This document shows positions 22,257-36,491 of a stretch of 54,284 bases of DNA, one piece after another (the stretch's first letter is position 1; each line of letters begins with the position of its first letter). A model generated the notes under the pieces. The model was given only the letters and a program-made list of their open reading frames with translations. It was not told where the DNA came from and made no database searches. The translations under genes were made by a program, and so were the position numbers. This stretch comes from Candidatus Woesearchaeota archaeon. Its GTDB lineage: Archaea; Nanobdellota; Nanobdellia; Pacearchaeales; GW2011-AR1. Location of the stretch: assembly GCA_964559675.1 (NCBI GenBank), contig CAZLHJ010000001.1, positions 1 to 54,284 of the forward strand, in the 5' to 3' direction.

Positions 22257-24446
22257 TTACTGGTTCTCAGCTAATCCTTTTCTGTCTCTAATCTTTCTAA
22301 TTACGTTATCTTGTAATTCTCTAGGAAGTTTTTGGAATTGCTGATCTGCAAGTGAAGATACTCCTCTTCCTTCTGTTGCTGATCTTAAATCTGAACTCCA
22401 TCCAATCATTTCTGAAACTGGGATCTTTGATCTTATAACTACATCAATTCCTTCTTGTTGAACATCTAATAGAACTCCTCTCTTTCCACCAACTAATTGT
22501 GTTACTGCTCCCATAAAGTCTACAGGCGCTTCAATTAAGTGTGTCTGAACAGGTTCTAGGATTACTGCTCCACCTTTTTGCATTGTTTCAAACATACCTT
22601 GTCTAACTGTTGGATAAATTTGTGCAGGTCCTCTATGCATGTGGTCTACGTGAAGTTTTGCATCATGTAAGATTAACTTAGTTTTGATAACTGGTTCTTT
22701 TGCTAACGGTCCAGCATCAATAACCATTTTCCATCCATCCATAATTGAATCTATAACTTCTCCTAAAAGTACAAGACCTCTTGTTCTATCCTCGAAAACA
22801 TTTCCTTTATAGATTTCTCTATATTGTCTTGCTTCATCATTACTTATTCCTAATTCAGAAAGTTTTTTCCAAATGTCTTCAGGTTTCTTCTTTAATCTTC
22901 CCTCAGGCAATTCTCCTTTTTGGATAGATTCGAAAACATTATCTTCTAAAGGCTCAATACTGAAGAATAAAATGTTATGTCCATTTGGAGTTCTAACTTC
23001 AACTTTAGGACTTTCCCCACTTACAGATTCTCTATAAACTACGATTGGAGGGCCCATTTTAATATCAAGACCTTTTTCATTCTTGATTCTTCCTTCGATA
23101 ATCTCTAAGTGTAATTCTCCCATTCCAGATAATAAGTTCTCTCCAGTTTCCTCATTAATTTCAATCTTAATGGACGGATCTTCTTTACCAACTTTTCTTA
23201 AAACTTCAACTAATTTTGGTAAGTCTACAGATTTCACTACTTCAATCGACTTTGTAATAACTGGTTGGAATATGTGTTTGATTTCTTCAAATGGAGTTTG
23301 AGGTGTGGTAGTAACTGTTTCTCCAACATCTACATTTAATCCAGTAAGTGCAAGAACGTTTCCAGCAGGAACTCTTTCTAATTGCTCTGGCTTAATTCCA
23401 TTATATACTAGAACTTGTTGTACTCTTGTTTTTTTATTTGCGTTATTACAATGTAACTCCATACCATTAACAACTGTCCCAGAATATAATCTTCCAGCTG
23501 CAATTTCTTTTCCAGATCTTGGATCAATAACAATATTTGTAATAACGAATGCAACTTCTCCTTCTCTATTACAACTCAATAAATCTTGTCCAAATTGAGA
23601 ATCGATATCTCCTCTCCAGATTTTTGGAATTCTATATTTTTGAGCTGAAACTGGATCAGGTAAGTGCTTAACTGCCATATCTAAAATAACTTCGTGTAAT
23701 GGCGCATTTTTCCATATCCATTCTTTTCTTACTTCTTCATCTTTTTGATAAATATCTAAAATATCTTTAAAGCTAACTCCTTTTTTCTGCATGTAAGGAA
23801 CAGATAATGCCCAATTCTCTCTTGCAGATCCGAATGCAACGCTTCCATCTGTAACACTAACTTTCCATTTTTCTTTAAATTCTTCTTCTGCGATCTGCAT
23901 AATTAAGTTATTGAAATCAGTAATTAATTTCATAAATCTTTGTTGCATTTGCTCCGGTGTAACTTTTAATTCTTTGATTAATCTGTCAACTTTATTGATG
24001 AATAAAACTGGTTTTACTCTTTCTCTTAGAGCTTGTTTCAAAACTGTTTCTGTTTGAGGCATAATTCCTTCAACTGCACAAATAAGAACGAAAGTACCGT
24101 CAATAGCTCTCATAGCTCTTGTAACGTTTCCACCAAAGTCAACGTGTCCAGGAGTATCAATTAAATTAATTAAATATTCATTATCTCCAAAAGAGTGAGC
24201 CATAGATACGTTTGCAGCGTCAACAGTCATTAATCTTTCTTGTTCATCAGCATGTTGCCATGTTGTCATTCCTTCTTCTAAGTCTCCAGCGTTCTTAGAA
24301 GCCATCATACCTGCTGCAGCCAATAAGTTATCAGTAAAAGCAGTTTTTCCGTGGTGAATGTGCGCAGACGTAGCTACGTTTCTGATTGTCTTCTGGTTAC
24401 TAGTCAACCTGTTAATCTTCTGTAAACTTGTTTCTTTTTCAGCCAT
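22257..24446 (-). CDS. fusA: translation elongation factor EF-2
   Basis: DTPGHVDFGG, NKVD, MGELHLE, diphthamide loop HRGPAQ; G1 and G2 motifs are atypical (see findings). Confidence 0.98.
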   Translation of the reverse strand: MAEKETSLQKINRLTSNQKTIRNVATSAHIHHGKTAFTDNLLAAAGMMASKNAGDLEEGMTTWQHADEQERLMTVDAANVSMAHSFGDNEYLINLIDTPGHVDFGGNVTRAMRAIDGTFVLICAVEGIMPQTETVLKQALRERVKPVLFINKVDRLIKELKVTPEQMQQRFMKLITDFNNLIMQIAEEEFKEKWKVSVTDGSVAFGSARENWALSVPYMQKKGVSFKDILDIYQKDEEVRKEWIWKNAPLHEVILDMAVKHLPDPVSAQKYRIPKIWRGDIDSQFGQDLLSCNREGEVAFVITNIVIDPRSGKEIAAGRLYSGTVVNGMELHCNNANKKTRVQQVLVYNGIKPEQLERVPAGNVLALTGLNVDVGETVTTTPQTPFEEIKHIFQPVITKSIEVVKSVDLPKLVEVLRKVGKEDPSIKIEINEETGENLLSGMGELHLEIIEGRIKNEKGLDIKMGPPIVVYRESVSGESPKVEVRTPNGHNILFFSIEPLEDNVFESIQKGELPEGRLKKKPEDIWKKLSELGISNDEARQYREIYKGNVFEDRTRGLVLLGEVIDSIMDGWKMVIDAGPLAKEPVIKTKLILHDAKLHVDHMHRGPAQIYPTVRQGMFETMQKGGAVILEPVQTHLIEAPVDFMGAVTQLVGGKRGVLLDVQQEGIDVVIRSKIPVSEMIGWSSDLRSATEGRGVSSLADQQFQKLPRELQDNVIRKIRDRKGLAENQ

Positions 24447-28137: not shown

Positions 28138-28746
28138 TTATCTTGCGGAATCTGCTTGTTTCTCAGCTTCGTTCTTCTTTGTAAGTGCAAATGATTCCAT
28201 ATTTCCTTGAGCAGTTAACATAATCTCGTTTGCTAATGATTCTGCCATTTTCTTCTTCTTTCCAAATGATCTTTGATATGCTCCTTGTACAAGCCATCTT
28301 AATGCAAGATCTACTCTTCTCATTGGAGATGAGTCAACAGCCTGAGGATATCTCGCTCCTGCTTGCTCAATAACTGTAATTTCGTCTCTTGGAGAACCAT
28401 TTTCAATAGCATCAACAAGAACTTGAATTGGATTTTGATTTGTCTTTTTCTCAATAATATCAAATGCACCCAAAACGATTAACATATTGTTTCTATATGC
28501 TCCTGAGCTCCACGCAGTAATTATTTTGTGTTTCTTTCCAACGTGTCCTGGAACTGCAATTCTATTTGCTAATCTCTCAACAATATTCACTCTCGTTTTT
28601 CCATGTTTCACTTTAGCGTTAAATCCTTGAGACTTAACAAGTAATTTAGGATCAACATTAATGAATGGCTTCATTGCTGCATCTTTTATTTGAATATCTG
28701 CAACAGAGTACTTATCAAATATTTTAAATTCTTGAGCTTGTTCCAT
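28138..28746 (-). CDS. rps7: 30S ribosomal protein uS7
   Basis: IVERLANR, NPIQVLVDAIEN..PRDE, AVD.SP.RRVDLALR. Confidence 0.98.
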   Translation of the reverse strand: MEQAQEFKIFDKYSVADIQIKDAAMKPFINVDPKLLVKSQGFNAKVKHGKTRVNIVERLANRIAVPGHVGKKHKIITAWSSGAYRNNMLIVLGAFDIIEKKTNQNPIQVLVDAIENGSPRDEITVIEQAGARYPQAVDSSPMRRVDLALRWLVQGAYQRSFGKKKKMAESLANEIMLTAQGNMESFALTKKNEAEKQADSAR

Positions 28747-29168
28747 TATCTTCTTCCCTTCTCTATTTTACCTCTCCATAACAAATGTAATGGTTGGTCA
28801 TTTACTTTAATTACTTTGAATCTGATTCCTCTAATATCTCCTTTAGCTCTTCCTTGTTTTCCACCAATTCTTTCGATTACGACTTCATCGTGTTCATCTA
28901 CGAATTTTTGTGCTAAGTTTCCAGGAATGAACGCTCCTACTTGAAGACCGTTCTTAACCAATTGAACCTTGCAACATTTTCTCATCGCAGAGTTTGGCTG
29001 TGCAGCTTCTTTTTGGAATTTCTCAATTACAATTCCCTTAGCTTGCCAACTTCTTCCCAATGGATCGTATTTGACTTTCAAACCTGTCTTTCTAGATTTG
29101 AAATCTCTATTTTGCCATCTATTGGCCTTCCTTCTATTCATTATTTTTTTTGCATTTAATAATCCCAT
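28746..29168 (-). CDS. rps12: 30S ribosomal protein uS12
   Basis: QPNSAMRKC..VQLVKNG, DEHDEV, GDI.G.RFKV.KVN. Start placed at MGLLNA (29168). Confidence 0.97.
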   Translation of the reverse strand: MGLLNAKKIMNRRKANRWQNRDFKSRKTGLKVKYDPLGRSWQAKGIVIEKFQKEAAQPNSAMRKCCKVQLVKNGLQVGAFIPGNLAQKFVDEHDEVVIERIGGKQGRAKGDIRGIRFKVIKVNDQPLHLLWRGKIEKGRR

Positions 29169-29211: not shown

Positions 29212-29628
29212 TTAAAGAATCTTAAGCTCAAAATTGAATACGCCCTGTATTATCTTCTCTAATTCTTCGAGTCTCCTTTTATTTCTTCCAATTAAGCTAG
29301 CTTTATTCTGATTTGTTCCTGCAGTGATTATCACTTCAGAATCTTTAACTTCCAAATTTTTGAATTTTATCGGCGAGACGATATCAGAAATGAAGCTTCC
29401 AATCTCATTAACTCCATTAGGCTCTCTAATTATTTTTATTTTTTTACCAATCTGATCTTGCATTTTTTTAATATTTATTGCTTGAGGACCAATTGCTTTA
29501 GAAATTAGATTTTGAGGAACAGCAAAGAAGATAGTATTATTATATACGAAACATCTCATCGTCTTAACCTTAGAGGCCTTATCTAATAAGTTAATGTACC
29601 TCATCGTTTGCATATCTATTGTTGCCAT
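29212..29628 (-). CDS. nusA: archaeal NusA (two KH domains)
   Basis: KAIGPQAINIKK and LIGRNKRRL KH motifs; conserved position between rpoA and rps12. Confidence 0.93.
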   Translation of the reverse strand: MATIDMQTMRYINLLDKASKVKTMRCFVYNNTIFFAVPQNLISKAIGPQAINIKKMQDQIGKKIKIIREPNGVNEIGSFISDIVSPIKFKNLEVKDSEVIITAGTNQNKASLIGRNKRRLEELEKIIQGVFNFELKIL

Positions 29629-29797: not shown

Positions 29798-32700
29798 TTA
29801 TTTCTTCTTTTCCGATTTTATCTCCTTTGATAATGGTCCTGTAATTTGAACTAACAATCCTGGCAATCCTGTTCCAACTGGAATTGGTTGGTTCAATAAA
29901 ATATTTTCTACAACAGAGTTTAATTCATCTCTTGCACCTTGCATTGTTGCAGTGATAAATTGTTTATCAGGTGTTTCGAATGTTGCTCTTGCCAATACGG
30001 ATGCTTTGTCAGAGATAATTCCCATTCTAGTAATTCCCTTAACTATTCCAGAGGAAGTCATTGCATCAGCAACAAAGTTAATGTGCCTCTCATTAATATC
30101 TAATCCTTGAGATTCAATAACTTTCTTAATTTCATTAATTATTGTTTGTCTTGCTGCTTCTACTCCAAGTACTCCAAATACGTCGTGAATATCGTTGCTA
30201 AAGATTTTATCTTTGTTAACTCCTTTAATTGTCATTACGTCAGATAAATTGCTTCCTGAGGTGATTATTACAAAGTCGCTTCCTCTCTTGCTCACAACAA
30301 CTTGGTTGATTCCTTTAACTCCAGAGATAATAATTTCTTTTAATTTCTCTTTCAATTTGTAAAGTCCTTTGAAATCTAATTCTTCCATATGTAATGTTAA
30401 TTTCATATCGTTAGCTTTGAATTTATATCCCTTGTCATTCAACTTGTCATTAATTTTATCAATGCCTAAGTGAGTACTCTTAACTGCTTTTTGATCTAAT
30501 GTAATTTCAATCTTCTTTCCGCCAAAGTCCACTTTAATCTCTGACGCAATTTCTTTCAATTTAACTTCTCTTATCTTCTCAGCAATAACTCTTGAATTCT
30601 TTTCATCATTATGCTCTTTATCTAAGTAAATTTCCATCTGAGGCGTAGAAGGTTGTTTTCTAGCGTCGACAATTTCAATTAATCTTGGAAGTCCTTGTGT
30701 AACTTGTAATTCTGCAACTCCCGCATGGTGGAAAACGTTCAAAACCATCTGTGTTGAAGCTTCTCCAAAGCTTTGTGCAGTAATAACTCCAATCGCTTCA
30801 GCAGGACTTACCTTATTATTTTTCAAGTGAAGTTTAGAGACATCTAATCCATCGTTTCCGTATTCAAATTGAACAACTCTTTCAGACGCATCTCTTACAG
30901 TTCCGTCGTATTCTATTTTCAAATCTTGTAATGCAGAAACTAATCTTCTATAGAAGTATCCAGATTTAGGAGTTCTAAGTGCAGTATCCATCAGAGAGTC
31001 TCTTCCTGTAATAGCGTTAAAGAAGAATTCGTGAGGCTTCATACCTTCGAAGAATGAACTCTTGATAAATCCTCTTCCTTCTGGGCTCATATCTCCTTTC
31101 TTGAAATGGCTTAATGTTCTATCGTTATATCCGAATGAAATTCTTCTTCCCCATAAAGACTGCTGTCCGATTACACAACCAATCTGGGTGATATTTAACA
31201 TACTTCCAGCTGCTTTTGGAACAATCATTTTGTTAACATTTCCATCGACTGGGAAGTTTGCTTTAACAACTTCTGCAACTTCAGTTCTAACTCCGTTCAA
31301 AATCTGCATAATCTTTGTTTCTCTTGTTTCTTCAGGAGTCTTTCCAGGGATTTGCTCAAGTTCATCATTCTCATATTGAGCGATAATATCTTTAGTTGAT
31401 TTTTCAGCTTTTGTAATAATATCTGAAGTAATATCTTTTACTTTCTTTGAAACGTTTAAGTCTTGTAAGGATAGGGTATATCCTCTTCTTGTCAAATATT
31501 CTGTTCCTAATCTGAATGCTTTATTGATAGATTCAACTGCAACATCTCTTCCAAATTCTCTATCGATTACTTTTATCATTACTGAATCTTCAACTCCGAA
31601 GCTTGATTCTCCAGTGATCTTTGCAGGAACTTTCAAACTACTTCCTTTAGGAATAACTTGTCCGAATACATCTTTTCCATCTTGTTCTTTCTTTGTGTTT
31701 GAGTTTTCGATTCCAGCATTGAATAACAATAAGTCTGCTTCAGACTTTGAAATTGTTTCTTGTCCAAGAAGATAATTTCCTGTAACTGCGTCGGCAAATG
31801 TACCTACTAAGTTCATATTATTTTTACTTGAGATTATGTTTGTGTTAATATCCAATAATACTTTTGCTTCTGCTAATGCTTCTTCAGTCTGCGGACTGTG
31901 GATGTTAATTTCGTCTCCATCGAAGTCAGCGTTATATGGTGGTGCAGCAGCAGGGTGCAATCTAAATGTTCTTCCAGGAAGAACTTTAACATAATGTGCC
32001 ATTAATCCTTGCTTGTGAAGTGTAGGGTGTCTGTTTACAAGAACCATATCTCCATCTCTCAAATGTCTTTCAATCTTGTATCCAGGAACTAATTCGTTCT
32101 TTATTTCTTCTTTAAATTCAGATGTAACTTTCTTTCTCTTTCCATCAGGTCTAATAATATAGTTTGCTCCAGGATATTCTCCTCCAGATTCGATTAATTT
32201 CTTAACTTCCTCAACATTAAAGCTTGTTACACTTTCTGATACAGTAATCACTTTTGCAACTTCAATTGGGATTCCAATTTCATTAATTTTAATATACGGA
32301 TCAGGTGAAACTACTGTTCTTCCAGAGAAGTTAACTCTCTTTCCTGCTAAGTTGTTTCTAATTCTTCCTTCTTTTCCTTTAATTCTTTCAGTAATTGTCT
32401 TTAATGGTTGTCCAGATCTGTGTCTCGCAGGAGGAATTCTTGTAACATTGTTATCAAAGAATGTTGTAACATGATATTGTAATAGGTCCCACAAGTCCTC
32501 TATAATGACTTCAGGAGCTCCAGCATTAAGGTTTTCCCACAATCTTTGGTTTGCTCTTATAATATCTGATAACTTGTGTGTCAAGTCGTCTTCAGACCTT
32601 TCTCCAGATTCTAATGTAATTGAAGGTCTAACTGTAACGCTTGGAACTAATAATAATGAGATTACTGCCCATTCAGGTCTTGCCGTTTTTGGATTAATTC

Positions 32701-33235
32701 CAATTTTCTTTAATTCACTATCTTGAACTTTTACAAGTTTTTCTCTAATTTCAATTGGAGATAATCTCTTTTTACCAATCATAAAGTTGCTTGGTTTTTC
32801 AACTTTAACTTTATCAATATTTTCATTACAGTGAGGGCATTTCTTAGCATCTCTTGCTTTCTTTCCTCTTTCTGCAGGTGTTAATCCTTGTTGCTTTTCA
32901 TCACTTAATGTTAATTTTCCACAGTGTGGGCAGAAACTTCTCAAACATAATTCTACAAGTTGAATGTATTTGATATGTAAAATTGGTCTTGCAAGTTCAA
33001 TACTTCCAGGGTGTCCAGGACATTCTTTAACTCTCTTTCCACAAGTTCTACATCTAACTCCTGGATCGATTGCACCTAATCTTAAGTCCATTAATCCTCC
33101 ATCTACTGGGAATCCATCGATATCATAAAGTTCAGGAGTTACAATCTTTGCAGAACTAAGTCTCTTAATCTGCTCAGGGCTAAGCAAACTAAAGCTTAAA
33201 CTCTTCACTTGTTTTCTGAATGATTTATCTAACAT
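29798..33235 (-). CDS. rpoA: DNA-directed RNA polymerase largest subunit, fused A'+A'' (Rpo1N+Rpo1C)
   Basis: NADFDGD catalytic motif, Zn-clamp CxxC motifs, and trigger loop plus A'' C-terminal ENI..NQPIPVGTG in one ORF. Confidence 0.97.
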   Translation of the reverse strand: MLDKSFRKQVKSLSFSLLSPEQIKRLSSAKIVTPELYDIDGFPVDGGLMDLRLGAIDPGVRCRTCGKRVKECPGHPGSIELARPILHIKYIQLVELCLRSFCPHCGKLTLSDEKQQGLTPAERGKKARDAKKCPHCNENIDKVKVEKPSNFMIGKKRLSPIEIREKLVKVQDSELKKIGINPKTARPEWAVISLLLVPSVTVRPSITLESGERSEDDLTHKLSDIIRANQRLWENLNAGAPEVIIEDLWDLLQYHVTTFFDNNVTRIPPARHRSGQPLKTITERIKGKEGRIRNNLAGKRVNFSGRTVVSPDPYIKINEIGIPIEVAKVITVSESVTSFNVEEVKKLIESGGEYPGANYIIRPDGKRKKVTSEFKEEIKNELVPGYKIERHLRDGDMVLVNRHPTLHKQGLMAHYVKVLPGRTFRLHPAAAPPYNADFDGDEINIHSPQTEEALAEAKVLLDINTNIISSKNNMNLVGTFADAVTGNYLLGQETISKSEADLLLFNAGIENSNTKKEQDGKDVFGQVIPKGSSLKVPAKITGESSFGVEDSVMIKVIDREFGRDVAVESINKAFRLGTEYLTRRGYTLSLQDLNVSKKVKDITSDIITKAEKSTKDIIAQYENDELEQIPGKTPEETRETKIMQILNGVRTEVAEVVKANFPVDGNVNKMIVPKAAGSMLNITQIGCVIGQQSLWGRRISFGYNDRTLSHFKKGDMSPEGRGFIKSSFFEGMKPHEFFFNAITGRDSLMDTALRTPKSGYFYRRLVSALQDLKIEYDGTVRDASERVVQFEYGNDGLDVSKLHLKNNKVSPAEAIGVITAQSFGEASTQMVLNVFHHAGVAELQVTQGLPRLIEIVDARKQPSTPQMEIYLDKEHNDEKNSRVIAEKIREVKLKEIASEIKVDFGGKKIEITLDQKAVKSTHLGIDKINDKLNDKGYKFKANDMKLTLHMEELDFKGLYKLKEKLKEIIISGVKGINQVVVSKRGSDFVIITSGSNLSDVMTIKGVNKDKIFSNDIHDVFGVLGVEAARQTIINEIKKVIESQGLDINERHINFVADAMTSSGIVKGITRMGIISDKASVLARATFETPDKQFITATMQGARDELNSVVENILLNQPIPVGTGLPGLLVQITGPLSKEIKSEKKK

Positions 33236-33239
33236 TTTT

Positions 33240-36200
33240 TTATCTCTCGTATTTATTCTTTAATTCAAATTTAGTATTTATTCCTAATCCAAGTAGTTCA
33301 TCAATTAACAACTTGAATGCGTATGATACTTCAACTGGATCAGCTTCGCTGTTTCCACACATATTACATGGTGTTTTGTTTCTTATTACATCTTCGTAAG
33401 TCATGTTTCCACAATCCTTACATATCCAAACAATTGTTTTATCTGAACTATATCTTTCTTTCAATAATAATGAAGCTCCGTGACCTACTAATGCTTGTTG
33501 CTCCATTTCTCCTAATCTTAATCCTCCACCTCTTGCTCTTCCTTCAATTGGTTGTCTTGTTAATAATGCAACTTTTCCAAGAGCTCTTGCATGAAGCAAG
33601 TTCTTTACCATTCTCTCTAGTTTCAAATAATACATGTTACCAATATAAATCTTAAGGTTCATTCTCTTTCCAGTTACCCCATCATACATTGTTTCCTTAC
33701 CATCAAATCTGAATCCTGCTTCCTTCAATTGGCCTTCTAATTGTTCAACACTTTGTCCAGTAAAGCTTGTTCCATCGACGATCTTTCCAGATGTTGCAGC
33801 AGTTTTTCCTGCTAATAATTCAATTAAATATCCTACTGTCATTCTGCTCGGAATTCCGTGCGGATTGAAGATTAAATCTGGTCTAATTCCACTAGCTGCA
33901 AAAGGTAAGTCGTTAGGATCTGCAATAAGTCCGATAACTCCTTTCTGTCCGTGAGGTGCAGAGAATTTGTCTCCTGGCTCAGGCAATCTTGTATCTCTAG
34001 TTCTTACTTGAATAATCTTATTACCTTCTGAATCTACAGTTATGAATACTGAATCTACAGTTCCTCTCTCTTCTTGTCTCATAGCACTACTTGCTTCTTT
34101 CTTAGCTTGAATACTAATATCTCTTGCTTCACTTAAGAATTTAGGAGGAGTAATTTTTCCAATAATAACTTCACCACTATCAACGTCTGCTTCAGGGTAA
34201 GCGATTCCGTCGTCTTCCAAATGTCTATATTTCTCTTCAGTTCTATATCCAGAAACATCTTTATCAGGAATAACAATTTCATCTCTCAATCCTCCAGGAT
34301 ATTGTAATTCTACCGATCCATAAGGTCTGAAATATGTGCTTCTTCCCATACCTCTATTTACGCTCGCTCTGTTCAAAATAATAGAGTCTTCCATGTTATA
34401 TCCTTCATACGGCATAACTGCAACAATTACGTTTTGTCCAGATGGATAAACTTCTAATGTATCGTATACAAAACTCTTTACAAGAGGTTTTTGTGGGTAA
34501 TGTAATATAGAAACGTTTGTATCTAATCTTACTAAGTAGTTAGCAGCATAAATTCCAAGACTCTGAGTTAATGTTTTTGCTCCTCTTAATAATCTAGATC
34601 CCTGGTCGTGGTTTCCGTAAGGAACAAGGCTTGTAATTAAACCAAACATATCTATTGAGTGTACTTCTAAATGTGTGTGTTCTGGTGTTAAGTCTCTTTC
34701 ATCTGATGCAATTAATGCATTTTCTTCTTCAGAAGCATCAATATATTCGATAACTCCTTCACTTACTAAATCTTTCCACTTAAGTTTATTCTCTTGTAAT
34801 AATACAACATGTTCGTCTTTAAGTCTACTCTCTCCATTTTCTACTACAATTACAGGTCTTAATACTCTTCCAACTTCATTTGAAATCATAACTTGCTTCA
34901 AGTGATCATCATATCTTATACAAATTTCATGTGCGATTTCATTACTTCTTCTTAATCCTCTGAAATCTTTAGCAAATTTATCTCCATCATTAGTATACCC
35001 TAAGAATCTTCCATTAAAGAATACGTCGACCTTTCCACTTTCTCTATTCAATCCAATTTTATCTATTGACTTTTCAAATGATTTTTCATCAATCAAAATA
35101 GCAGTCGATACTCTAGCCAATAATGCAAGGTTTTTTCTTAATCCGATTTCAGTTCCTTCTGGAGTTTCAATTGGGCAGAATCTTCCATAGTGTGTTGGGT
35201 GTAAGGTTCTAGCTGCAAAATTTTCTTGTTCTCCAGGAAGCAAGCTAGTAACTCTTTGCAATTGTGATAAGATTCTCAAGTAATTTGTTTTCTGCATGTT
35301 TTGTGTAACACCAGATTTTTCTCCAATCCACGAACCTGTTGCAATCGCGCTTTCCATTCTGTGTGTGAATAATGTAGATTTAGCAATTGTTTTCAATGAA
35401 TAGAATTTCTTTCTCTTTGAAATTTTTTGTAATGAATACTGAATATCTCTTACTAAAATACCGACGTTAACTCTGAACAAATCAGACATCAAGTCTCCAG
35501 ATAATTTAACTCTCTTGTTAGCATAATGATCTTTGTCTGTTCTTATAGTTGAATCTTCTTTAGATCTCAAATATAAATTAACTAATCTACATAATGTCAT
35601 AGCTTTTTCTTGTCTTGAATTTTTATCTAATCCAATATGTGGAAGTAAGAAAGAATCAATTCTTTGTTTAACTCTGTCAAGTATTTCTTTTCTTGTTCCT
35701 TGAATTCCTGATTTCTCAGCAATAAACATCATAGCATCTTCTGCATTTTGCAATGATGCAAACTCATATAAGTTTACAATTAAACAATCGTTTTCGTAAT
35801 TAATGTTCTTTGCAATTTCAGCTTCTTTTGACATTCCAAGAGCTTTTAATAAAACAATAATTGGAATATTTTTCAATCTACTAAATGTCAAATCTAATAA
35901 TCCTTCATTTGTTTCAGAAATAGTTGTTGGGATTCTATATGCTCCTCTTTGGCTAAATAATCTTAATGTTAAACCTAATCTTCCTTCTTCGATAAATGGT
36001 TGGTTTGGTGCTAAGTCCTCAGACATAACAATTAATCTTTCGTTTCCATTAACTATGAAGTATCCTCCAACATCTAATGGGTCCATTAATTGCTCTTTTA
36101 ATTGTTCTCTTGTCATTCCATAAGTTGAACATGCAGCGCTTCTTACAATAACGGGCATTCTTCCAATTTCAACTTCACTTGAATCAGTTTGATCTCCAAA

Positions 36201-36491
36201 CTTAACTGAGATTTCAACAAATACTGGAGCAGAATATGTTAAATTCCTCAATCTAGCAACTGTTGGGTTAATCTCTGTGGTACTTCCATCACTTTCAATA
36301 ATATTTGGTTTACCAATTCTTACTCTTCCTAATTTGATTTCAACTTCTTCATTATTTATTGTAGAATTAATTTCGTTTACTACTTCTTGAACTCTGTGTT
36401 CAATAAAATCATTGAAGGATCTAATGTTAGATTCAACTAAAGAATGTTGTTCAAGATATCTTCTTACTAATATGTCTTTTTTGCTTACCAT
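33240..36491 (-). CDS. rpoB: DNA-directed RNA polymerase subunit B (unsplit)
   Basis: GYFIVNG.ER, CPIETPEG, GYNMEDS, GDKF..HGQKG, RQP.EGR, GLRLGEME. Confidence 0.98.
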   Translation of the reverse strand: MVSKKDILVRRYLEQHSLVESNIRSFNDFIEHRVQEVVNEINSTINNEEVEIKLGRVRIGKPNIIESDGSTTEINPTVARLRNLTYSAPVFVEISVKFGDQTDSSEVEIGRMPVIVRSAACSTYGMTREQLKEQLMDPLDVGGYFIVNGNERLIVMSEDLAPNQPFIEEGRLGLTLRLFSQRGAYRIPTTISETNEGLLDLTFSRLKNIPIIVLLKALGMSKEAEIAKNINYENDCLIVNLYEFASLQNAEDAMMFIAEKSGIQGTRKEILDRVKQRIDSFLLPHIGLDKNSRQEKAMTLCRLVNLYLRSKEDSTIRTDKDHYANKRVKLSGDLMSDLFRVNVGILVRDIQYSLQKISKRKKFYSLKTIAKSTLFTHRMESAIATGSWIGEKSGVTQNMQKTNYLRILSQLQRVTSLLPGEQENFAARTLHPTHYGRFCPIETPEGTEIGLRKNLALLARVSTAILIDEKSFEKSIDKIGLNRESGKVDVFFNGRFLGYTNDGDKFAKDFRGLRRSNEIAHEICIRYDDHLKQVMISNEVGRVLRPVIVVENGESRLKDEHVVLLQENKLKWKDLVSEGVIEYIDASEEENALIASDERDLTPEHTHLEVHSIDMFGLITSLVPYGNHDQGSRLLRGAKTLTQSLGIYAANYLVRLDTNVSILHYPQKPLVKSFVYDTLEVYPSGQNVIVAVMPYEGYNMEDSIILNRASVNRGMGRSTYFRPYGSVELQYPGGLRDEIVIPDKDVSGYRTEEKYRHLEDDGIAYPEADVDSGEVIIGKITPPKFLSEARDISIQAKKEASSAMRQEERGTVDSVFITVDSEGNKIIQVRTRDTRLPEPGDKFSAPHGQKGVIGLIADPNDLPFAASGIRPDLIFNPHGIPSRMTVGYLIELLAGKTAATSGKIVDGTSFTGQSVEQLEGQLKEAGFRFDGKETMYDGVTGKRMNLKIYIGNMYYLKLERMVKNLLHARALGKVALLTRQPIEGRARGGGLRLGEMEQQALVGHGASLLLKERYSSDKTIVWICKDCGNMTYEDVIRNKTPCNMCGNSEADPVEVSYAFKLLIDELLGLGINTKFELKNKYER

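Follow-up and report, generated by a model that had tools for sequence, protein, structure and literature searches.

The question raised by this locus is how a ribosome decodes when both lysine 42 and proline 90 of protein uS12 (E. coli numbering), both of which rank with the most thoroughly studied determinants of ribosomal fidelity, have been replaced. The window, namely, the whole stretch of 54,284 nucleotides analyzed here, encodes a uS12 protein that contains FQKEAAQPNSAMRK and RAKGDIRGIRFKV, with alanine and arginine at these positions. An earlier reading of the letters alone (the sequence-only reading) had proposed a naturally restrictive decoding center whose cost is compensated elsewhere. 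We therefore analyzed the identity of the gene, the distribution and history of the two residues in relatives, and the candidate compensators. Below, states are written as residue 42/residue 90.

The gene was identified as uS12 of the archaeal/eukaryotic type. Profile searches gave 120.9 bits for PF00164 (cut-off 22.3) and 174.9 bits for TIGR00982 (uS12_E_A), exceeding the curated cut-off of 140.2 at full length (residues 2-140 on model positions 1-139 of 139). Archaeal uS12 chains of known structure in the PDB were matched with an E value of 2e-41. Every homologue opens with MGL, and the start codon is accordingly the ATG at 29168. The reading frame is intact, and the gene order rpoB-rpoA-nusA-rps12-rps7 is the usual block, in which the ATG of uS7 overlaps the stop codon of uS12 (TAATG). 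The named relatives are Pacearchaeota/Nanoarchaeota MAGs, and rpoA/rpoB homologues adjoin uS12 in 34 recovered loci. The window genome (G000), itself a MAG of 790 kb in 60 contigs with 85% completeness, holds a single uS12 copy. The coordinates of the features are given in Table 1. In several other lineages, this otherwise conserved cluster is broken, such that uS12-uS7 stands without nusA-rpoA-rpoB within 7 kb upstream; these are the lineages of L105 (G071), L108 (G229), L112 (G066), L126 (G016), and L134-L136.

Table 1. Features of the window that bear on the analysis of uS12.
Feature	Position	Strand	Evidence or use
uS12 (rps12) gene, 140 aa	28746-29168	-	PF00164 and TIGR00982 profile matches
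Codon 56, GCA = Ala, E. coli K42 equivalent	29001-29003	-	Alignments with E. coli RpsL and solved uS12 chains
Codon 113, AGA = Arg, E. coli P90 equivalent	28830-28832	-	Alignments with E. coli RpsL and solved uS12 chains
EAAQPNSA loop, codons 54-61, "PNSA" decoding-center loop	28986-29009	-	Sequence, alignment, pattern match
GDIRGIRF loop, codons 110-117, "PGVR" decoding-center loop	28818-28841	-	Sequence, alignment, pattern match
uS7 gene	28138-28746	-	PF00177, 113.8 bits; operon context and tree marker
NusA-like KH-domain gene, upstream of uS12	29212-29628	-	TIGR01952 E 1.4e-15, below cut-off; weak KH_1 match; operon context and tree marker
rpoA	29798-33235	-	ORF; same-contig tree marker
rpoB	33240-36491	-	ORF; same-contig tree marker
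EF-2 gene	22257-24446	-	

Alignment with E. coli K-12 RpsL placed Ala56 under K42, which is the first lysine of PKKPNSA, and Arg113 under P90 (DLPGVRY). The window protein is also collinear with canonical uS12 (TIGR00982; PDB 9o17, 4v6u of Pyrococcus furiosus, and yeast Rps23 in 4u3m), alignable end to end, and located at the same operon position. In the solved archaeal and eukaryotic chains, Ala56 falls under the K of EAKQPNSA or ESKQPNSA and Arg113 under the P of GDIPGVRF, where the window reads EAAQPNSA and GDIRGIRF. Thus, the earlier assignment of the two residues as K42 and P90 equivalents was correct, including their exact coordinates. Both decoding loops (QPNSA and K-G-D-x-x-G-[VI]-[RK]-[FY]) are kept in register with E. 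coli, archaeal, and eukaryotic uS12, and residues 42 and 90 are the only deviation from the canonical loops. Ala56 and Arg113 take the place of the near-universal Lys42 and Pro90, which the TIGR00982 model does not require. A substitution at K42 and/or P90 is a mark of error-restrictive or streptomycin-type rpsL variants, and both positions are changed in the window uS12.

The substitutions are real and are not sequencing artefacts, as they recur in independent assemblies with synonymous codon variation. Ala42 is encoded by all four of its codons (GCA, GCG, GCT, and GCC) and Arg90 by AGA, AGG, CGA, and CGT. Because these codons are used across synonymous divergence, both residues have long been held by selection. 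Ala42 and Arg90 are therefore a selected lineage trait under purifying selection.

Next, we analyzed the occurrence of the states among relatives. The nearest 120 protein clusters were drawn from a collection of 5.8 billion proteins, and their source assemblies came from ENA, JGI, NCBI, Tara, and Logan. Ala/Arg was found in 113 of these clusters, including two with further loop changes, Lys/Pro in five, and Cys/Arg and Ala/Pro in one each; the Ala/Pro sequence (P0101) comes from a 500-nt contig. When uS12 was read in 71 genomes, each representing one species of the Pacearchaeota-like GTDB family to which the window belongs, 29 carried Lys/Pro and 26 carried Ala/Arg (25 plus G097), followed by Arg/Pro (seven), Lys/Ser (seven), and Met/Pro (two). 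Outside the family, the Ala42 pattern gave one match, in G795, which was not uS12 (the search covered ~370 genomes of high quality, drawn from about 120 families in the phylum), and the Arg90 pattern gave chance matches only, with that of G471 not being uS12 (about 88 genomes, completeness 99).

The accuracy positions of uS12 are unusually plastic throughout the family. Lineages with Arg42 (some of which have GDMPG) or Met42 each carry Pro90. A well-supported clade with GDLSGV, in which Ser occupies the P90 position, Leu replaces the preceding Ile, and Lys42 is kept, comprises L008, L014, L015, L026, L089, L093, and L095 (genomes G019, G029, G016, G003, G131, G252, and G221, respectively). Cluster P0097, with 51 members, shows Ala/Arg plus QPSSG for QPNSA and KGN for KGD; the Asp of KGD is the residue methylthiolated in bacteria. 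One further uS12-like fragment was observed as a second copy in G220 (C75:65-246), which reads ESKQPNSAIRKCVRI with a eukaryote-like Ser41 on a short contig, and which is probably bin contamination.

Within the family genomes, Ala42 and Arg90 are strictly coupled. Every Ala42 sequence read from these genomes had Arg90, and Arg90 was found in none of the 45 genomes with Lys, Arg, or Met at position 42; Arg42 retained Pro90, and Ser90 retained Lys42. A pattern scan detected Ala42 with Arg90 in 28 of 250 family genomes and in 25 of 151 genera, and Ala42 with Pro90 in none of the same 250 genomes. Arg90 together with a codon 42 whose first base is A (Lys, Arg, Met, Thr, and others) was absent from all 400 family genomes scanned. 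A general version of the pattern served as the control and matched 344 of 401 genomes. Among the 120 nearest clusters, the partner of Arg90 at position 42 was Ala or Cys only. The signature of a suppressor pair, in which both sites are altered in one protein and the P90 change never stands alone, was thus found in the family scans.

A species tree was then employed to analyze the history of the two sites. RpoB, RpoA, NusA, and uS7 (2559 columns, 34 loci) were taken from the same contig as uS12 as a guard against binning problems, and another family with Lys/Pro served as the root; the trees were built by a quick LG+G4 search. The Ala/Arg genomes fell into two sub-clades, both well supported, among which Lys/Pro and Arg/Pro genomes were interspersed. 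At least four state changes were forced by well-supported branches, and the most parsimonious number was six. Constraining Ala/Arg to one clade cost 2103 lnL units (AU p 4e-39), and a smaller flank tree (47 loci) gave the same picture. Three genera were mixed: g190 (G315 with Ala/Arg, G274 and G193 with Lys/Pro), g63 (G229 with Ala/Arg, G066 and G287 with Met/Pro), and g143 (G304 with Ala/Arg, three others without). Site 90 followed site 42 in four of four independent contrasts on supported branches, for which the sign test is underpowered (p 0.125). These results indicate at least four coordinated switches of both residues, some inside single genera.

The two residues have been studied extensively as bacterial rpsL alleles. 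K42 is in electrostatic contact with the phosphate of C912 (helix 27), and hydrogen bonds connect the PNSA loop with the PGVR loop; E. coli K42A is viable and hyper-accurate (PMC4224418). P90R alone leads to streptomycin dependence in Thermus (PMC3884664) and in E. coli and Klebsiella (PMC3082907, PMC4182516). In Thermus, dependence is caused by bulky P90 residues including P90R, and the effect was ascribed to their clashing with helix 44, by which the decoding site is distorted and GTPase activation is blocked (PMC3884664). In bacteria, K42 mutations reportedly suppress P90 dependence mutations from within the same protein, according to work cited in PMC3884664. Because P90R brings dependence and K42 changes suppress such mutations, the best reading would be a compensating pair inside uS12, and the archaeal pair would thus match the epistatic relation known from bacterial K42/P90 genetics.

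We therefore favor, with a probability of about 0.7, the reading that the window uS12 is the genuine and sole uS12 of a Pacearchaeota-like DPANN archaeon and carries, in the two loops that shape the decoding center, a mutually compensating Ala42/Arg90 pair that is not compensated elsewhere. As proposed, Lys/Pro and Ala/Arg would be two alternative workable and mutually compensated forms of the uS12 clamp on 16S helices 27 and 44. Arg90 would be tolerated only once the Lys42 side chain is removed (by Ala, rarely by Cys), and lineages would switch both residues together, repeatedly, because of this dependence. How the clamp is rebuilt is more tentative. One possible arrangement, which we consider less likely than not, is that the guanidinium group of Arg113 fills the space of Lys56 and makes its phosphate contact, thereby relocating the charge between neighboring loops. 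The decoding site with Ala/Arg may be near-normal or mildly restrictive in accuracy. Furthermore, Ala/Pro and Cys/Arg, although rare, point to an evolutionary path that passes through a small residue at position 42 first; Ala42 alone may be viable, as in E. coli, judging from the lone Ala/Pro sequence P0101.

The archaeal pair resembles the bacterial rpsL alleles of E. coli, Salmonella, and Thermus thermophilus, which confer streptomycin resistance and error restriction at K42 and streptomycin dependence at P90, in that the same two residues of the same two loops are changed, and both the published P90R and the laboratory-studied K42A recur in it. The suppressor relation of rpsL would predict the pattern found in the archaea, namely, that Arg90 never occurs without a change at 42. 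However, the bacterial alleles are antibiotic-selected laboratory mutants that are mostly costly, whereas the archaeal pair, which is known from sequence, is natural, fixed, and selected; roughly one species in ten of a large family carries it, and it has been gained or lost more than once. Like the archaeal pair, bacterial K42R and the Arg42, Met42, and Ser90 forms of the family are naturally occurring variants at the accuracy positions. Position 42 in bacteria is reportedly only Lys (96%) or Arg (4%), and K42R is non-restrictive there (PMC4224418). K42R keeps the positive charge, whereas Ala42 of the archaeal family removes it and, in the family genomes, occurs only with Arg90. The variant corresponds to laboratory rpsL alleles. 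Our literature search found no description of a natural and fixed Ala42/Arg90 uS12 that recurs in archaeal ribosomes, which does not prove its absence.

A whole set of free-living lineages uses an Ala42/Arg90 ribosome, and the double change was made and unmade several times in nature with no Lys42/Arg90 intermediate left. The pair offers a case of strong sign epistasis within the decoding center that is both natural and replicated, and it supports a role of uS12 in organizing the decoding site beyond steric contact alone. Ala/Arg and Lys/Pro sequences from the same genus are ready-made pairs for studying the loops and accuracy in archaeal and eukaryote-type ribosomes.

The alternative of the sequence-only reading is one that we consider unlikely. 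It posits a ribosome whose decoding is restrictive (hyper-accurate) by nature and whose cost is offset elsewhere, by ram-type changes in uS4/uS5, by helices 18, 27, or 44 of 16S rRNA, or by the unusual EF-2 of the window. K42A and other K42 alleles are indeed error-restrictive in E. coli (PMC4224418), and the classical means of offsetting restrictive S12 alleles are mutations in S4/S5 and in rRNA bridges (PMC3082907). Substitutions of K62 in yeast Rps23 (S28) lower paromomycin-induced miscoding, as far as the citation of Alksne et al. 1993 in PMC4224418 conveys. As described there, these changes concern the same lysine in a uS12 of the eukaryote/archaeal type, as in the window, but they are engineered single changes (R, N, T, and Q) without a partner at the proline. 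The strict Ala-Arg coupling described above, in contrast, already provides a compensator within uS12, and no other one was found at the candidate sites, as follows.

Since the 16S rRNA of the window genome was not assembled, the Ala/Arg relatives G002, G063, G005, and G097 stood in for it. The 530 loop and segments 907-926, 1392-1416, and 1484-1507 were identical in these four genomes and in the Lys/Pro relatives. No alignment column was Ala/Arg-specific in all four compared with many Lys/Pro genomes; position 932 differed in two Ala/Arg genomes, but not in G005. C1490U suppresses P90L in Thermus. The pairs A1409-U1491 and A1410-U1490 were considered as a family-specific permissive background and rejected, both being common across the class. 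For the proteins, uS4 was found by TIGR01018, as PF00163 gave no uS4 in these archaea. No position in the conserved parts of uS5 and uS4 separated the states (five Ala/Arg versus five Lys/Pro genomes, in phylogenetic pairs), and the same held for the conserved parts of aEF1A (seven versus five). This covariation search in uS4, uS5, aEF1A, and 16S rRNA addressed fixed differences only, in four to seven Ala/Arg genomes; at that scope, the proposed compensation in uS4, uS5, and the h18/h27/h44 segments was not borne out by any Ala/Arg-specific change.

The EF-2 of the window carries the variant motifs AHIHHGKT and LMTVD. The variant was also present in G193 (L140), a Lys/Pro genome, with 89% N-terminal identity, whereas the Ala/Arg genomes G107 and G315 had canonical motifs, as did the Lys/Pro genomes G274 and G015 (L141-L144). 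A link between the EF-2 variant and the uS12 state was thus rejected, and compensation by EF-2 was dropped along with it. The absence of the variant from G274, which belongs to the same genus as G193, fits horizontal movement of EF-2. Taken together, the earlier interpretation holds in that the residues are real, selected, and located at accuracy and streptomycin-response positions, but not in that compensation lies elsewhere, as the coupling lies within uS12.

Selection might instead flip the two configurations. On the most far-reaching reading, which we consider improbable, the clamp would be bistable, and Lys42/Pro90 and Ala42/Arg90 would be functionally different settings of accuracy against speed, or of sensitivity to natural ligands of the decoding site; if true, ribosomal fidelity would have a determinant that can be switched in nature. 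Adaptive toggling, driven by natural decoding-site ligands (aminoglycoside-like compounds or toxins of hosts or competitors) or by tuning of speed against accuracy to the niche, is less probable still. Both positions are classical sites of streptomycin contact and response, the family also has the Arg42, Met42, and Ser90 variants, and the coordinated switches, each of at least three base changes, are much for pure drift. However, Ala/Arg and Lys/Pro lineages come from metagenome sources of like kinds. Moreover, C912U gives streptomycin resistance in E. coli; because the 16S rRNAs of the family already have U at 912, streptomycin itself is unlikely as the agent.

A single origin of Ala/Arg, followed by horizontal spread among relatives through homologous replacement, would reduce the coupling to mere linkage. 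This is very unlikely. Phe51, Gly78, and Ile115 are common to most Ala/Arg sequences, as such a spread would have it, but they also occur in neighboring Lys/Pro and Arg/Pro sequences, and G107, G140, and G115 have Ala/Arg on Thr78 or Ser78 backgrounds in place of the usual Gly78. The uS12-only tree is poorly resolved, and its starred branches by themselves are compatible with a single change; nevertheless, when the two columns were removed, monophyly of Ala/Arg was disfavored on this tree (59.6 lnL units, p-AU 0.03). The uS12 backgrounds track the species tree: the uS12 of G107 (Ala/Arg) was nearest to that of its neighbor G015 (Lys/Pro; 88.9%), and the DPLGRSWQAKGIVI motif was common to Ala/Arg and Lys/Pro proteins of clade I. 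When Ala/Arg alleles from separate clades were compared, their DNA identity was 0.78-0.83, no higher than with Lys/Pro alleles, and every compared pair was at or below 0.86. Recent allele transfer was rejected, as DNA identity gave no signal of it. Linkage also leaves unexplained the reversions that altered both sites. The spread of one Ala/Arg allele is therefore unlikely, and the compensating pair within uS12 remains the preferred reading.

That the gene is an artefact, a pseudogene, or a non-ribosomal paralogue has a negligible probability, as no positive sign of this was found beyond the incomplete MAG status of the genome, and against it stand the intact frame inside the NusA-uS12-uS7 operon, the sole copy, the synonymous variation at both sites, and the presence of the pair in more than 100 clusters from the five sources above and in 28 other species genomes.

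Several further observations were made on the decoding components of the family. The 16S rRNAs of many members (L043, L042, L032, L038, L040, and others) read ACACTGCCCGT, which places U at the normally invariant C1400. The loci with U1400 all have C at 1499, and a few differ at 1396 and 921; neither U1400 nor the variation at 1396 and 921 tracked the uS12 state.

The EF-2 frames of L142 (G315:C5, 1236 aa) and G018 (C2:4511-4870, 1205 aa) are about 500 residues too long, and their N-terminal P-loop part matches ~1.3 kb upstream of the remainder. This looks like a large in-frame insertion at the P-loop, possibly an intein.

Lastly, uS5 of some relatives carries a zinc-knuckle-like Cys cluster, C-x-x-F-D-C-x-C...H (L149, L150, and L153-L157 were compared with L148, L151, and L152). 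In uS5 of the window genome, G018, and G315, an acidic stretch (GFES-PEE...) occupies the place of this cluster; the presumed metal site would thus have been gained or lost inside the family.
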